From assembly GCA_963793265.1 (NCBI GenBank), contig CAWBZI010000006.1, positions 896,001 through 960,000 on the forward strand: a stretch of 64,000 nucleotides of DNA. Reading direction: 5' to 3'. This document shows, piece after piece, positions 1 through 26,351 of the stretch. Each line of letters begins with the position of its first letter. The first letter of the stretch is position 1. Source of the DNA: an uncultured cyanobacterium (GTDB lineage: Bacteria; Cyanobacteriota; Cyanobacteriia; Phormidesmidales; Phormidesmidaceae). Position numbers and translations under genes: made by a program. The notes beneath the pieces are model-generated. The model did no database searches. It was not told where the DNA came from and worked only from the letters and a program-made list of their open reading frames with translations.

Positions 1-1032
1 AATTTGAGTAAGTAGAGCCTCGCCGCCGAAGCGGACAACATCGGTGCAGGGTAAGCCGGTTTCTTGGGTGATAGCAGCGATCGCACCCATCGCCTCCCGC
101 TCATCCAATCCAAACGTATTCAAAGCAATCCCAGCAACCTTAACAGGCGCAAAGATACCGCCCGCCGTCGCCACCGACTCATACATTTTCACCACCTCAG
201 CAATCGGTGGAATCTTAAAGTCTGGGAAATGCTGAATATGTGAGAGGCCCGCCTTGTGAACCAGAATTAAATGCGTGGGCTGACTCCCTCTAATCAGCGG
301 CAGCGTTGCGGTAGAAGCTGGGTTGAGTAGAGAGCCCTGGCCTTCGACAAAAAGAATATCGTGATCGTCGCCGTGACGGAGTAAGGCTTGTTCGACCGCG
401 CCCGAAGCGTAGTCTACGCGGATAGCGTCCAGCGGAATGCCGTCTTCGCCCAGCATGAGGCCCGTTTGACCCGTGGCAATCAGTTTGGAGCGTAGACCTT
501 TGGCTTTAGCAGCGCGGTTGAGTTCTATAGCCGTAGACATTTTGCCAACGGCCATATCAGTGCCGACCATTAGTACGCGATCACACTTCAAAAGCCGCGC
601 TCTCCCACCCCCCACCGTCAGCCCATCAGGCTCTTTGCGCATATCCCACACCCACCGCCCCGGCTGAATACTACCGACCACATCAGGATCGTTATTCATC
701 TGAGTATGCAGCCCGTTCATCACCGAAAGCCCAGACTTCACAGCCTGCTTGACTTCTTCATACCAGGGCTCCGGGAGCTGCCCGCCAGAAGGGGCTAGGC
801 CAATTGCAAGCACCGTAGGACTATGAGAAAGGGCGGCTTCTACAGAAGAGACAATCGGAATATCGCGGTCAATGCCTATTAAGGACGCAATGGATTCGCC
901 TTGGGCGGTTTCGTCGATGACGGCGACGATTGGATTTTGGCTGTAGCGGAGGAGTGACGTGCCCGTTTTGCCTTTGGCTCCCTTCAGCCCACCGTGCATA
1001 AATATAACAATGCGATCTTCAGGCGTGAGCAT
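1..1032 (-). CDS. DUF1611 family P-loop protein (D-glutamate N-acetyltransferase-like), 3' end runs off the window
   Basis: Manual translation from ATG at 1032 gives MLTPEDRIVIFMHGGLKGAKGKTGTSLLRY...GTDMAVGKMST...ATGQTG...VEGQGS. It overlaps the epimerase stop, the usual epimerase-DUF1611 pairing. Not in the ORF track. Confidence 0.85.
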   Translation of the reverse strand, partial: MLTPEDRIVIFMHGGLKGAKGKTGTSLLRYSQNPIVAVIDETAQGESIASLIGIDRDIPIVSSVEAALSHSPTVLAIGLAPSGGQLPEPWYEEVKQAVKSGLSVMNGLHTQMNNDPDVVGSIQPGRWVWDMRKEPDGLTVGGGRARLLKCDRVLMVGTDMAVGKMSTAIELNRAAKAKGLRSKLIATGQTGLMLGEDGIPLDAIRVDYASGAVEQALLRHGDDHDILFVEGQGSLLNPASTATLPLIRGSQPTHLILVHKAGLSHIQHFPDFKIPPIAEVVKMYESVATAGGIFAPVKVAGIALNTFGLDEREAMGAIAAITQETGLPCTDVVRFGGEALLTQI

Positions 1033-17117: not shown

Positions 17118-17297
17118 CTAATCGTCGCTGAGCATTTTAATGATGTGCTTCGCTAAGTGCTCCTTGACTTCTCTATGCCTTGGAATGGGTTGAGAAACTT
17201 TAGTCTTAGGATTTTGATACCAATCGTGCTTTCCGCCATGGCGCACAAATACGCATCCGAGCTTTTCTAGCTTTCTAATTAAATCTCGACGTTTCAA
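17118..17297 (-). CDS. hicA: HicA family toxin (59 aa, not in ORF track)
   Basis: Manual translation MKRRDLIRKLEKLGCVFVRHGGKHDWYQNPKTKVSQPIPRHREVKEHLAKHIIKMLSDD; TTG start overlaps the hicB TGA. Confidence 0.88.
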   Translation of the reverse strand: MKRRDLIRKLEKLGCVFVRHGGKHDWYQNPKTKVSQPIPRHREVKEHLAKHIIKMLSDD

Positions 17298-17485
17298 GAC
17301 ACTTCAAGCTCGGCAACTCTGCGAACGTGTGAAACTGCGCCGCTCGTTAGATCTTTGTATATATCAAGTAGGTTTTCTTTTAGCTCAGCTTCAGTTTCTC
17401 CCTGCGTCAAATAATCAGGAAATTCCGCAAGATATCCTAGCCACATATCCTCGTCTTTCCAGTAAATATATTTCTGCTTATCCAT
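17294..17485 (-). CDS. hicB: Short HicB family antitoxin
   Basis: WLGYLAEFPDYLTQGETEAELKENL. Confidence 0.85.
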   Translation of the reverse strand: MDKQKYIYWKDEDMWLGYLAEFPDYLTQGETEAELKENLLDIYKDLTSGAVSHVRRVAELEVS

Positions 17486-18493: not shown

Positions 18494-18943
18494 TTATGCC
18501 ATGCGATCGCGCTTAATGTCATACACCGCCTTATCAATACACCAAACAGCATCTTTACCAGGATTTCTCTCTGCAATCCTTTCCACTAATCGCAGGGAGA
18601 TTTCTTGATTATGCGTGAGTTCATTAAGTCGGTGGTACGGCAGCGATTGTGATGTAGTGCGGCAACAGCTCTGCTTCAACCAAGGTGATTTTGGTTTTAT
18701 GTTGTCAGTCCGTAACCGATCGTAGCGAATAGGAGAGCTTTTGGATGATGTTTGCTTTTGCTTCAGCCAGGGTGACTTCGGCTTTATATTGTCAGTCCGT
18801 AATCGGTCATATCGAATAGGTGTTTTCAACGGCGTTCTCAACGGCGTTTTCCCATTCCAGCTAAACCACGGAATGCCAATCTTTATAGCTCTAAAGTAGC
18901 TCCACAACACCGCTAAACCGACTAAGGTAAGCAAAACAGACAT
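18494..18943 (-). CDS. Hypothetical membrane-anchored protein with internal 21-aa repeat
   Basis: N-terminal TM; PIRYDRLRTDNIKPKSPWLKQ x2; C-terminal RL..RNPGK...W..DK..YD..RDR helical motif. Confidence 0.75.
   Translation of the reverse strand: MSVLLTLVGLAVLWSYFRAIKIGIPWFSWNGKTPLRTPLKTPIRYDRLRTDNIKPKSPWLKQKQTSSKSSPIRYDRLRTDNIKPKSPWLKQSCCRTTSQSLPYHRLNELTHNQEISLRLVERIAERNPGKDAVWCIDKAVYDIKRDRMA
18671..18820 (-). repeat. Two 63-bp copies (18671-18733 and 18758-18820) encoding identical 21-mers
   Basis: Direct alignment gives 52/63 nt identity; all 11 differences are synonymous. Confidence 0.92.
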
Positions 18944-19126: not shown

Positions 19127-19372
19127 TTATAGTTCGTCGTAAGCAGCCATTTGAGGATGATTCCAATCTTCGGCAATAGCTTGTAGTCGAGATCGCAACT
19201 CAGCAGCCTGTTCTGCCCCTATTCCTCGGCTCACCAAATCCACCAAATTTTCAGCGCCCGATAGGCCCGCGTTCGTTTTTTCTTGTAAGAACTCAGCGAA
19301 CTTCAACACGGCTTGCTGTTTATCAGGTGCCAGGACGCGGATAGTTTCAAAGATTTGTTATTCAATTAGCAT
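19127..19372 (-). pseudogene. DUF2281-like antitoxin interrupted by an early in-frame TAA
   Basis: ATG 19372 reads MLIE*QIFETIRVLAPDKQQAVLKFAEFLQEK...EDWNHPQMAAYDEL; the stop is at 19358-19360. Confidence 0.65.
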
Positions 19373-19468
19373 ATCTAACTCTGTCAAATAACTATGATAT
19401 GAAGGATGGCAGAAGATAGCCGACTCATTCCGCTGACTATGCAAAACGCCTTCTTACAACATTTGCGC

Positions 19469-19497
19469 TTGCGTCTCCGTAAAAATACGCCTATCAT
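19469..19497 (+). promoter_or_regulatory. sigma70-type promoter
   Basis: TTGCGT-17 nt-TATCAT. Confidence 0.7.
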
Positions 19498-19502
19498 CAT
19501 CT

Positions 19503-19760
19503 CTAAGGTTGTGATGCGGGCTTTCGTACCGCGCTGCACCTTCTCAGAACTCAAAAAGACTAAGCACCGTTGGTAAGTGCTGACACACCTACCAACGGCT
19601 AACGCACAGGATTCCTAAGCAATCCCGGACGCCTAAGGGTCACGATAACCTTTAGTCACCCCGATTTGCACGTCATCTTCGGATGGCATTTCTGTGGTCG
19701 GCTAAGAATTCGCGAGTTCTGGGTTTCCTTACCCTCACCTAAAAACGGAACCCCAGAAAT
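19503..19760 (+). ncRNA. Putative structured 5' leader / ncRNA of unknown family
   Basis: Six predicted hairpins between the promoter and ATG, including a 9-bp perfect stem (19567-19598) and a cUUCGg tetraloop (19672-19687). Confidence 0.55.
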
Positions 19761-19761
19761 C

Positions 19762-20001
19762 ATGTTCACCCTTTCTCCCCAGGTCGCCTTCGCGTCCACC
19801 GTTCCTCACGACAACAAACCTGTTGCCCAAGCCGAGCCTATTTGTCACACCCTAAAAGGTAGCCTCAGCGCCATCAAAGCCACCATCCGGCTACTGTACA
19901 AACTCAACTACGCCGAACCCGGCGACTGGAGTCCACCGCAACCCACCGACCGACACAACGAATTCATATCTGTTCTAAAGCGACGAGTAACCGTAGGCTA
20001 G
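19762..20001 (+). CDS. Small hypothetical protein (79 aa)
   Basis: EPICHTLKGSLSAIKATIRLLYKLNYAEPGDWSPPQPT...EFISVL resembles a cyanobacterial small-protein family; bounded by promoter and terminator. Confidence 0.72.
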   Translation: MFTLSPQVAFASTVPHDNKPVAQAEPICHTLKGSLSAIKATIRLLYKLNYAEPGDWSPPQPTDRHNEFISVLKRRVTVG

Positions 20002-20018
20002 CTACTGGTATTGAACTG

Positions 20019-20055
20019 CCGAGGCGGGGGCTAAGAAGTCCTCGCTCGCTTTTCT
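20019..20055 (+). terminator. Intrinsic terminator after the small ORF
   Basis: GCGGGGGCT-AAGA-AGTCCTCGC followed by a T-rich tail. Confidence 0.6.
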
Positions 20056-20213: not shown

Positions 20214-20286
20214 TGCCAGGAGGCGGACTTGAACCGCCGACACGAGGATTTTCAATCCACTGCTCTACCAGCTGAGCTATCCCGGC
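20214..20286 (-). tRNA. trnF: tRNA-Phe (GAA), CCA not encoded
   Basis: GCCGGGATAGCTCAGCTGGTAGAGCAGTGGATTGAAAATCCTCGTGTCGGCGGTTCAAGTCCGCCTCCTGGCA folds as a cloverleaf. Confidence 0.96.
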
Positions 20287-23411: not shown

Positions 23412-24107
23412 ATGCCAACCCTTGAAGCCAGCCCAGTGATGGACTTCCAGAGTGAAACCTATAAGGATGCTTACAGCCGCATTAACGCGATTGTCATTGA
23501 AGGAGAACTCGAAGCTAACGACAACTACAAGCAGTTAGCTGAGCGCCTAAACGAGCATAAGGACGAGCTGATTAAGCTAGCTCGAATGGAAACTAAGCAC
23601 ATGAAAGGCTTTCAAGCCTGCGGCAAAAACCTTAGCGTTACGCCCAACATGCCGTTTGCTAAAGAATTCTTTGCTAAGCTACACAACAATTTTCAAACGG
23701 CCTACGCCGACGGCAAAATTGTTACCTGTCTGCTGATTCAGTCTTTGATTATTGAGACATTTGCGATCGCAGCCTACAACATCTACATCCCCGTCGCTGA
23801 CGACTTCGCTCGCAAAATTACCGAAGGCGTTGTCAAAGACGAATATATGCACCTCAACTTTGGCGAAGAGTGGCTCAAGGCCAACTTTGAAACCGCTAAA
23901 GCAGAGCTAGAAGCAGCCAACCGCGCTAACTTGCCGCTGGTGTGGACAATGCTTAACGAAGTTGCCACCGACGCGGCTGTACTGGGCATGGAAAAAGACG
24001 CCCTCGTCGAAGACTTCATGATTACCTACGGCGAAGCGCTTGGTAATATCGGCTTCAGCGCCCGCGAGGTCATGAAGCTATCTGCTCAGGGTCTTGCGGC
24101 TGTCTAA
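23412..24107 (+). CDS. ado: Aldehyde-deformylating oxygenase
   Basis: [16 protein letters not shown]; ExxH di-iron motifs (METKH, DEYMH). Confidence 0.96.
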
Positions 24108-24253
24108 ATAGCTGTATAGATGTCTGTGCTGCGGCCCTGCTTTGTTCATTCGGGCAGGGCCAATTTTCTTCTAGTTGCCGCCGGGTGACGCTATATTCGG
24201 TTCTTTTTCAATCCCATTACTTTTAACGCATAAAACGACGTTACTAACCCTGA

Positions 24254-25273
24254 ATGTTTGGTTTAATCGGTCATCTCACAAGCTTAGAACATGCTAAATC
24301 TGTGGCTCACGATTTGGGATATCCCGAATATGCCGACCAGGACTTAGACTTTTGGTGCAGTGCGCCGCCGCAGATCGTCGACCACTTCAAGGTCACCAGC
24401 GCTACGGGTCAAACCATTGAAGGTAAGTACGTCGAATCTTGTTTTTTGCCAGAGATGCTAGCCCATCGCCGCATTAAAGCAGCCACTCGCAAAATTTTGA
24501 ACGCGATGGCCCACGCCCAAAAGAACGGCATCAACATCACAGCATTGGGCGGATTTTCCTCCATCATTTTTGAAAACTTTAACCTGGATCAAATTAAGCG
24601 CGTTCGCAATCTGGATCTAGACTTCAAAAAGTTCACAACGGGCAACACGCACACTGCCTACATCATTTGCAAGCAGGTAGAAGAAGCCGCTCCTAAGTAC
24701 GGCATCGATCTAACCAAAGCTACCGTGGCCGTCTGTGGGGCCACTGGTGATATTGGTAGCGCCGTGTGCCGATGGCTCAAAGCTCGCACGGGCGTAAAAG
24801 AGCTGCTGCTCGTCGCCCGTAATCAAGAGCGGCTCAACAACCTGAAAACAGAGCTAGATTTTGGCACAGTCGTGCCGATGGATGAAGCGCTACCCCAGGC
24901 AGATGTGGTGGTGTGGGTGGCAAGTTTGCCCAAAGGCTTAGATGTAGACGTGACCACGCTCAAGCAGCCTTGTTTGATGGTAGATGGCGGCTATCCCAAA
25001 AATATTGACGTGGCCTTTGCACATCCTGGCGTTCATGTGCTCAAAGGTGGCATTGTGGAGCACTCGCTAGATATTGACTGGCACATCATGAATATTGTAA
25101 ACATGGACGTGCCGGGCCGTCAGCTATTTGCCTGTTTTGCAGAGTCGATGCTGCTGGAGTTTGAAAAGCTCCACACCAACTTTTCATGGGGTCGCAATCA
25201 AATCACACTAGAAAAGATGGATTTAATCGGTGAAGCTTCGCGACGTCACGGATTTAGACCACTGCTCACCTAA
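24254..25273 (+). CDS. aar: Long-chain acyl-ACP reductase
   Basis: [39 protein letters not shown]. Confidence 0.96.
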
Positions 25274-25376
25274 GACTCTTACCTAAGCACCTCACTGATC
25301 TATCAGGCTTCGGGTTTCCTATAGATTCGACAATTACGGTAATCTAGAGTCACTGCTACTGAGCGCTATATCCCCC

Positions 25377-26351
25377 ATGGCAACGACTGAACGTAGGCCA
25401 ATCTTGCTGGACTTTGAAAAGCCACTAGCCGAGCTGGAGTCTAGAATCACCCAAATTCGAGATTTGGCCGAGGACAATGACGTAGATGTTTCTAAGGAAA
25501 TTTACGAGCTAGAGTCGCGGGCTCAGCAGCTACGGCAGGAGATTTTCACCAGTCTATCGCCCTCCCAGCGGATTCAGGTTGCCCGGCATCCGCGTCGGCC
25601 CAGTACGCTCGACTATATTCAGGCGGTGAGCGATGAGTGGATAGAGCTGCACGGCGATCGCCGCTCCGGCAAGGATGATCTGGCCTTAGTCGGTGGCATT
25701 GCCCGTTTTGAGGGCCGTCCGGTGATGATGATGGGCCATCAAAAAGGGCGTGATACCAAAGACAATGTGGCACGTAATTTTGGCATGCCCGTGCCCGGTG
25801 GCTATCGGAAGGCGATGCGGCTGATGGAACATGCCAATCGGTTTGGGATGCCGATTATGACGTTTATTGATACGCCGGGCGCTTGGCCAGGCTTTGAAGC
25901 AGAAGAAATGGGTCAGGGGGAGGCGATCGCCTACAACCTCAGGGAAATGTTTCGGCTAGACGTGCCGATTATTTGCACCGTGATTGGTGAAGGCGGCTCG
26001 GGAGGTGCATTGGGCATTGGGGTGGGCGATCGCCTGCTGATGTTCGAGCATTCTGTTTACTACGTGGCGAGCCCTGAAGCCTGCGCCTCTATTTTGTGGA
26101 AAGATGCTTCGCGCTCAGCCCAGGCCGCTGAAGCTCTAAAGGTGACCGCTTGGGACTTAAAGAGTCTTGGCATTTTAGATCAGCTATTGCCAGAGCCGAT
26201 TGGTGGTGCTCATGCCGCGCCGATTGAGGCGGCAAATACGCTGCAGCAGGCGCTTGCACAAAATTTGAACGTACTGCTAGAGCTGAGCCCAGAGCAGCGG
26301 CGATCGGAGCGCTATAACAAGTTTCGGCAGATTGGTGCTTATACCGAATAG
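25377..26351 (+). CDS. accA: Acetyl-CoA carboxylase carboxyltransferase alpha subunit
   Basis: [32 protein letters not shown]. Confidence 0.96.

Follow-up and report, generated by a model that had tools for sequence, protein, structure and literature searches.

A multicopy small-gene cassette in cyanobacteria with a structured leader and a predicted cis-antisense RNA

What kind of genetic element is the compact unit at positions 19469–20055 of the analysed window (the whole 64,000-nucleotide stretch of a contig from an uncultured cyanobacterium of the family Phormidesmidaceae), and what might its extensively folded RNA do? The original prediction depicted a promoter, a leader with six hairpins and a gene for a 79-aa protein, the only Shine–Dalgarno (SD)-like GGAA of which is buried in the last hairpin, and took the whole for an uncharacterised structured RNA controlling a small protein. 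The unit indeed comprises a promoter, a folded mRNA leader and a small ORF, every predicted part, including the six hairpins, could be located in the sequence at its expected position, and the ribosome-binding site (RBS) is occluded in hairpin P6 (table 1). The interpretation as an uncharacterised structured RNA is likewise supported, by covariation and by the absence of an Rfam match. The promoter is present and homology among paralogous copies starts at its −35 box, although a consensus-based scanner found no promoter here. What had escaped attention is a long-range helix, P1 (19545–19565 paired with 19701–19721), the multicopy nature of the unit, and a predicted promoter and RNA on the opposite strand. 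The analyses described below indicate that the unit is a real, widespread and apparently undescribed cassette of a predicted antisense RNA, a leader and a small gene.

Table 1. Parts of the cassette, with positions in the 64,000-nucleotide window.
Feature	Position	Strand	Basis
Sense promoter, −35 TTGCGT, 17 nt, −10 TATCAT	19469–19497	+	sequence; start predicted at about 19504
P0, 5' hairpin, variable in sequence and length	19505–19542	+	folding
P1 5' arm: sequence A (CAGAACTC, 19545–52) and P1b arm (19560–65)	19545–19565	+	covariation, G·U-type changes
P2 hairpin with a loop differing between copies; its minus strand would form the 3' (second) stem-loop of the antisense RNA	19566–19599	.	A·C signature
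P3 hairpin with a loop differing between copies; its minus strand would supply part of the 5' (first) antisense stem-loop	19606–19628	.	A·C signature
Predicted cis-antisense RNA, ~82 nt, two stem-loops and tail, +1 A at 19634, approximate 3' end	19553–19634	-	fold, −10 box, T column
Predicted antisense −10 box TATCGT in the P4 loop	19642–19647	-	fixed position across copies
Weak −35-like hexamer GTGCAA, 18-nt spacer	19666–19671	-	read by eye; no statistic behind it
P4 (19631–56) and P5 (19657–700)	19631–19700	+	covariation, G·U-type changes
cUUCGg hairpin, copy-specific insertion in the P5 loop	19672–19687	+	comparison of cores
P1 3' arm and switch strand B (GAGTTCTG-GGTTTCC)	19701–19728	+	complementarity upstream with A, downstream with C
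Sequence C with SD-like GGAA, sequestered in hairpin P6	19747–19761	+	folding
79-aa ORF: low-confidence N-tail and conserved ~55-aa core	19762–20001	+	alignment, predicted structure
Copy-specific terminator-like element, hairpin at 20023–20046	20023–20052	+	terminator scan

The leader of the window copy folds better than its shuffled versions (z −2.7; one of 200 shuffles folds as well), and the 23 leaders found in the same genome have folding z-scores from −3.2 to −9.8. Their layout consists of a variable 5' hairpin, a five-way junction closed by P1 and enclosing P2–P5, and finally the RBS hairpin. Compensatory evolution supports this model: in a 38-row MAFFT alignment not fitted to it, both sides have changed in 22 of the 52 pairs (0 of 500 shuffles), and in 75 diverse rows that were fitted to the model the number is 49 of 52 (again 0 of 500). 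The covariation score of 0.445 for the 75 rows, compared with 0.170 for shuffled and at most 0.107 for slid pairings, likewise comes from the alignment fitted to the model. In an unsupervised ranking of all 13,366 column pairs of a 77-row alignment, pairs of the model make up 33 of the top 40; this analysis was used instead of one on the 38-row MAFFT alignment, in which lineage signal was dominant. Searching the unit with Rfam covariance models gave no match, the hits besides tRNA-Phe being just sub-threshold chance matches, and a tRNA-like reading was discarded, with ARAGORN returning tRNA-Phe alone. Some traits picked out by the original prediction proved peculiar to single copies rather than typical of the family. 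All five CTAAG repeats (19503, 19560, 19615, 19633, 19702) are there, but the motif is missing from 60 of 96 cores; the cUUCGg hairpin exists here, yet the insertion recurs in just 2 of the 96; and a terminator-like hairpin does lie 3' of this ORF, whereas one follows the stop codon in only 2 of the 23 copies of the same genome.

A search for paralogues across the 5.68-Mb genome, the genes of which resemble cyanobacterial ones, recovered 23 homologues of the ORF at E ≤ 0.01 and 24 with a profile. With nucleotide profiles, 11 type A and 12 type B leaders were identified (23 in total), every one of them ahead of a single ORF; leader type matches protein subtype, type B going with a 7-aa insertion in the protein. 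This genome contains no full leader lacking an ORF, and one paralogous ORF (L011) was scored as having lost its leader. Homology among the copies extends from approximately the −35 box to approximately the stop codon, with unrelated flanks on both sides, and a loose promoter pattern, TTG-N3-N16-18-TAnnnT, matches 65 of 68 copies, a few of these matches being probably misplaced. In type B, the sequence upstream of the −35 box often includes a near-palindrome, TGTCAA-N4-TTGACA, which may be an operator, and a further conserved stretch. Eight copies tolerate insertions of up to ~245 nt, often repeat-like, downstream of the switch strand and ahead of the start codon. Another minor curiosity is an ORF (L007, positions 256–705, plus strand) whose first part corresponds to the N-terminus of the cassette protein and whose remainder is unrelated; it sits 1.2 kb upstream of an intact copy, with no leader detected.

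Beyond this genome, the RNA was sought with a covariance model built from 38 type A cores. All RNA counts depend on this single type A model, which under-counts distant copies and finds only 16 of the 23 leaders of the source genome on the correct strand. Even so, of the 121 genomes searched in the order, 95 have a hit, the matches totalling at least 988 with no more than 23 scored per genome; five genomes belonging to other genera have 24–40 matches apiece. In the class as a whole, 42 of 150 genomes are matched, in nine named families, with 0 of 4 genomes of the family f7. An RNA with at least 988 matches in the 121 genomes of one order, and present in nine or more families, is yet absent from Rfam. 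The protein family is broader than the RNA: it falls into 706 clusters at 50% identity, and candidate homologues occur in 35 of 301 genomes (at most 21 scored in each). A plasmid DNA search with the cassette as query gave no match. Numerous homologues have no such leader, several of them being divergently oriented from repressor-like genes, and nucleotide profiles found the leader at just one of the 29 top-scoring protein loci from other genomes. In family f7, a short hairpin made of two GCGATCGC palindromes lies ahead of seven leaderless homologues.

The strand from which the individual helices act was approached through their mismatches, counted in 77 copies with less than 85% identity (after removal of 30 rows that were partial or on the reverse strand and of 19 with more than 85% identity). 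Helices P1a, P1b, P4 and P5 prefer G·U to A·C (66:7, 46:4, 43:11 and 38:15, respectively), as expected of a plus-strand RNA. P2, in contrast, has 135 A·C and only 3 G·U, and P3 has 57 and 9. Since A·C on the plus strand is G·U on the minus strand, P2 and P3 read as hairpins of a minus-strand RNA. The signature persists in the 47 copies with less than 70% identity, and A·C is present in 12 of the 14 columns of P2. A candidate promoter for this RNA lies in the loop of P4, where the minus strand carries YAnnnT in 74 of the 77 copies, at 11–14 nt from P3 in 74 of 77, with a varying middle (TAAAAT, TAAACT, CATAAT, TACCAT, TATCGT and others). The minus strand attains a −10 score of at least 6 in 44% of copies, against 6% for shuffled P4 and 0–1% in P2, P3 and P5; the plus strand of P4 also has a loose YAnnnT in 60 of the 77 copies, but with lower scores (3.7 versus 6.0). 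Some seven bases past the −10 box, one column is T in 75 of the 77 copies, giving A as +1. In other copies, the −35-like hexamer was read by eye as TTGCCA, TTGTCA or TTGCAA.

The antisense RNA so delimited would measure 79–87 nt across copies. That of the window copy folds at −39.4 kcal/mol (z −5.4; 0 of 200 shuffles), and in all 77 copies the antisense fold beats its sense counterpart, compared with 16 of 77 for a control, the 3' half of the leader. The same features recur in 27 held-out loci, which come from three further families: the antisense strand is the more stable one in 27 of 27, the −10 box is present in 25, and 148 G·U pairs on the antisense strand compare with 23 on the sense strand. 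The loops of P2 and P3 are the most variable columns (entropy 1.4–1.5 bits) and were distinct in all 19 copies of the source genome examined. The 3' U-tail of the antisense RNA is weak, five or more T within 8 nt being present in 31 of the 77 copies; in the window copy, P2 was flagged as a minus-strand terminator by the terminator scan. The motif YUNR is enriched in the P2 loop, with closing bases included (43 of 77 copies versus 27 ± 4 on the antisense strand, 33 versus 16 ± 3.5 on the sense strand), and shows no enrichment in the P3 loop of the same copies; we place no reliance on it. The copies are mutually related, so that all these counts overstate independence. Judging from these sequence patterns, an ~82-nt cis-antisense RNA of two hairpins is very probably transcribed from its own minus-strand promoter. 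Among sequencing runs, no RNA run was listed as carrying the sequence, a result that has no bearing on expression.

How could such an RNA influence the small gene? Strand B is complementary both to A, which lies upstream, and to C, which lies downstream and includes the SD, and can pair with either. Both duplexes are stronger for cognate strands than for permuted ones (−9.9 versus −7.7 ± 0.3 for B–C, −11.3 versus −7.6 for A–B), and two copies (L133 and L156) have changes in all three strands. When the span of the antisense RNA was blocked in the folding model, the energy needed to open the RBS went up in 53 of 68 copies and down in 4, the median shifting from 7.9 to 11.7 kcal/mol. The effect cannot be ascribed to the P1 switch alone, because blocking P2–P3 by itself raises the opening energy too (in 36 of 58 copies, median +1.4; with the P1 arm also blocked, in 47 of 58, +3.6). 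The ON and OFF folds of the window copy have energies of −81.1 and −83.2, the unconstrained fold being OFF by ~2 kcal/mol. Since, in addition, the RBS is expensive to open even when the antisense RNA is absent (median 7.9 kcal/mol), the ON state might depend on folding during transcription or on processing. B–C pairing is weak in several type B and distant copies, and blocking alters little in five copies from one genome. On the strength of the model folds, we regard it as likely that the A/B/C switch exerts translational repression by preventing an activating helix.

The mechanism would then run as follows. Both the sense and the minus-strand promoter would fire. Were the antisense RNA absent, pairing of A with B in helix P1 would shorten the RBS hairpin and permit translation. 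When present, the antisense RNA would recognise its own leader via the loops and then cover P3, P2 and the 5' arm of P1, freeing GAGTTCTGG of strand B to pair with C and so lock the RBS; the sense–antisense duplex would perhaps be cut by RNase III. The unique loops would prevent cross-regulation among paralogues, and if transcription of a copy stopped, the antisense RNA would disappear sooner, allowing synthesis of the protein. Our best reading of the unit, predicted from sequence features, is that of an antisense-repressed cassette similar to type I toxin–antitoxin systems, and we hold it to be reasonably probable. The likeness to type I toxin mRNAs with an occluded RBS, invoked in the original prediction, fits this reading.

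The 79-aa protein is predicted to be soluble: its maximum 19-residue hydropathy is 0.84, it has no transmembrane segment, and just 1 of 120 homologues reaches 1.6. The AlphaFold2 model (mean pLDDT 81.9) has the topology β(24–33)-α(35–47)-β(68–77). Structure modelling also supports a homodimer, with a score of 0.82 (0.00 for the best of three controls), an interface via β1–β1', 100% agreement of contacts among runs and a partner pLDDT of at least 89; of 30 solved pairs, 20 attain the mark used, as does 1 of 23 single chains. The core of the protein is under purifying selection, with mean pN/pS of 0.30/0.72 for type A and 0.20/0.75 for type B and pN below pS in 111 of 111 paralogue pairs. Sequence searches of Pfam, NCBIfam, PHROGs, PADLOC and PDB gave no consistent match to the protein. 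The ESM Atlas contains unnamed cyanobacterial clusters only, and the automatic label ‘putative peptide ABC transporter substrate-binding protein’ on one of them was dismissed for lack of Pfam support. Foldseek found nothing at E ≤ 0.001 in PDB or BFVD; the best VIA Z was 3.8 (rmsd 2.2 over 44 residues), the domain being too small for an informative fold search, and identities as a MinE-, ACT- or KH-like fold were rejected, the matches being weak and tied. The fold searches show neither a new fold nor a difference from known ones. A growth-inhibitory function of the cargo is, in our opinion, possible but somewhat less likely than not.

The RNA is followed by different genes in different lineages. 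Members of the 79-aa family occur within 600 nt of 89 of 96 RNA loci; the other seven comprise two at a contig edge, one interrupted, one without an ORF and three leading into unrelated genes. In the held-out set, 18 of 27 loci carry the family. In four held-out loci, all from one genome, the RNA is followed instead by a small leader-peptide ORF that overlaps a gene for 72 aa; the peptide has 14–15 aa, and at five loci its stop overlaps or abuts the start of the larger gene, which suggests that the two are translationally coupled under the same RNA module. Five more held-out loci, from another genome, precede a ~128-aa gene and a ~110-aa helix-turn-helix-like gene, or part of this pair; six such loci are scattered among housekeeping genes, with the ~110-aa gene usually second, and this second gene matches HTH_36 weakly (E 0.001–0.009, below the curated cut-off). 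The RNA module is thus independent of its cargo, as in other lineages it leads into two unrelated kinds of small genes.

Could the cargo be a regulator rather than a toxin? This alternative, which we consider less likely than not, keeps the same antisense control and differs solely in the role of the protein, which would be an activator, an anti-repressor or an adaptor in a dispersed relic or a domesticated early-gene circuit of a plasmid or phage (CopA-, FinP- or Sar-like). Leaderless homologues divergent from XRE-type genes (read by eye, with one annotated helix-turn-helix) or from a ParG-type gene point in this direction, as do homologues on 13 plasmid records, among them one on plasmid D of Trichormus variabilis upstream of replication and primase genes, and the HTH_36-like second gene of the third cargo. 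However, no integrase, replication or phage gene was recognised beside the leader-bearing copies inspected, and no Rep or transfer gene follows the leaders of the source genome. Confirmed homologues of the protein number zero among IMG/VR viral contigs and zero in the phage collection; a lone motif match on a viral contig is a chance one, sitting inside an unrelated long phage ORF. Moreover, some two dozen separately controlled copies under purifying selection, with no local target, are hard to explain for a trans-acting regulator.

Other alternatives do away with the antisense RNA itself. In phage P1 C4 and P4 CI, a strand complementary to sites upstream and downstream lies ahead of a small gene, and the RNA is cut from the same strand. 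The cassette might analogously work on the sense strand only, either with a processed RNA of this kind, as the original prediction had it, or as a riboswitch-like leader, the A·C pairs being deliberate sense mismatches. The five-way junction does covary on the plus strand, with G·U in P1, P4 and P5, and the arrangement of A, B and C recalls seqA, seqB and seqC of P4. Yet this would leave unexplained the near-total avoidance of G·U in P2, the fixed minus-strand TAnnnT with its variable middle, the conserved +1 column and the perfect two-hairpin fold of the complement; loops that are the most variable columns are unlike a ligand pocket, and Rfam provides no C4 or riboswitch match. Folding asymmetry, the −10 box on the minus strand and the A·C mismatches all favour a separate RNA from an opposite-strand promoter, and we find a sense-only device very improbable. 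G·T wobbles in single-stranded DNA would produce the same A·C signature, so that P2 and P3 could alternatively be minus-strand hairpins of ssDNA or cDNA, serving as mobilisation ends or a retron-like product of a non-autonomous mobile element. Near-identical copies in unrelated flanks, with homology from roughly promoter to stop, agree with mobility, and so does the tRNA-Phe slot next to the window copy, which was without the leader at all 19 relatives' loci scanned (15, with flanks inspected, had other accessory genes). The hairpins are nevertheless internal, not terminal; inspection of copy flanks by eye revealed ragged boundaries with no terminal inverted repeats or target duplications; neither a reverse transcriptase nor a recombinase is a regular neighbour of the copies; and the −10 box and +1 spacing stay unexplained. 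A retron-like reading was rejected specifically, the minus-strand signature being in the wrong half of the RNA and no reverse transcriptase nearby. We deem a DNA-hairpin origin of the signature very improbable.

Returning to the antisense-repressed, type I-like cassette, how does it compare with known systems? Type I loci with the antitoxin opposite the 5' leader include hok/sok, ldr/rdl and ibs/sib, as well as SymE/SymR with a soluble toxin. A small hydrophobic membrane toxin is typical of type I but not universal, SymE and RalR being exceptions, and the 79-aa protein does not have this typical hydrophobic character. The cassette shares with these loci a small ORF, a long folded leader, an occluded RBS, a (here predicted) cis-antisense RNA with its own promoter, and multiple chromosomal copies with copy-specific recognition sequences; unlike them, it has a soluble ~55-aa core with no membrane helix or family match, 24–40 dispersed copies per genome and a conserved five-way junction. 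For the definition of such loci we followed passages of PMC2887945 and PMC12390103. According to passages of PMC5415839, the FinP antisense RNA consists of two stem-loops, the loops of which determine specificity, and the antisense RNAs of IncI/IncB plasmids act indirectly, by preventing an activating structure. FinP/traJ, CopA/CopT, IncI/IncB Inc and P22 Sar, as described there, resemble the cassette in the short antisense RNA and control of translation, and IncI/IncB also in the indirect action; the cassette differs in being chromosomal, multicopy and without an Rfam match, and its predicted antisense RNA, unlike FinP in those passages, does not overlap the RBS.

Among cyanobacteria, the part of PMC9978351 dealing with plasmid pSYSA of Synechocystis describes asRNA1, an abundant RNA of ~150 nt covering the coding sequence of ssr7036. 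That locus is like the cassette in combining a small ORF, a long leader and a cis-antisense RNA, but Ssr7036 is not homologous to the 79-aa protein (probability 0.08%) and the RNA model finds nothing there. Type I systems were, as a passage of PMC12390103 puts it, unknown in cyanobacteria until one candidate in 2025. The candidates MsoT1/MsoA1 (PMC12390103) and Ncl1450/Ncr1470 (bioRxiv 10.64898/2025.12.20.695498) each pair a small protein with an antisense RNA in the passages concerned; MsoT1 and Ncl1450 are transmembrane peptides, unlike the soluble cassette protein, a distinction drawn from these descriptions. The literature consulted, including passages of PMC5126843, PMC12873609, PMC6596454 and bioRxiv 10.64898/2025.12.20.695498, contains no description of the cassette family, and some overlap with the 409 novel cyanobacterial structures of PMC12873609 is conceivable. 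The regulatory logic is hence of a known kind; the family, its copy number and the exchangeable cargo are new.

The predicted exact antisense start, −10 box and switch strands make the mechanism directly testable, and naturally orthogonal antisense–leader pairs controlling three unrelated genes would be a ready set of parts for cyanobacterial synthetic biology. In the boldest scenario, which is unlikely to hold in every part, a portable antisense switch would have spread through filamentous cyanobacteria, without an encoded transposase, as addiction modules insulated from one another and numbering dozens per genome. It would be the phylum's first large type I toxin–antitoxin-like family, its toxin a soluble dimer from a novel family, with at least two unrelated extra cargoes under the same RNA. 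Genes near the copies include Uma2, PIN, HigBA, DUF4258, DUF5615 and Fic. In line with the type I-like reading, 10 of 24 copies have Uma2 or PIN no more than 2.5 kb away, where 2.0 would be expected (maximum 7 in 2000 draws), and PIN alone shows no enrichment at 1 kb (2 of 24, p 0.17); the proximity to toxin–antitoxin genes may merely reflect shared accessory slots.

The surroundings of the window copy offer a few further observations. The 3' side of the tRNA-Phe gene (20214–20286, minus strand) is a hypervariable slot, occupied by differing accessory genes in relatives. On the other side, divergent from the cassette, lies a broken DUF2281-type antitoxin-like gene (19127–19373, minus strand; weak Pfam match, E 3e-4) with an in-frame stop near its start, and further away a 149-aa ORF (18494–18943, minus strand) with an internal duplication (PIRYDRLRTDNIKPKSPWLKQ twice) and no family match. 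A HicA toxin gene (17118–17485, minus strand) has a 63-aa HicB-like partner upstream (weak UPF0150 match), and the pair adjoins, as read by eye, a carbonic-anhydrase-like gene. Finally, positions 23412–26351 harbour an ordinary cluster of genes resembling, again by eye, those for aldehyde-deformylating oxygenase, acyl-ACP reductase and accA.
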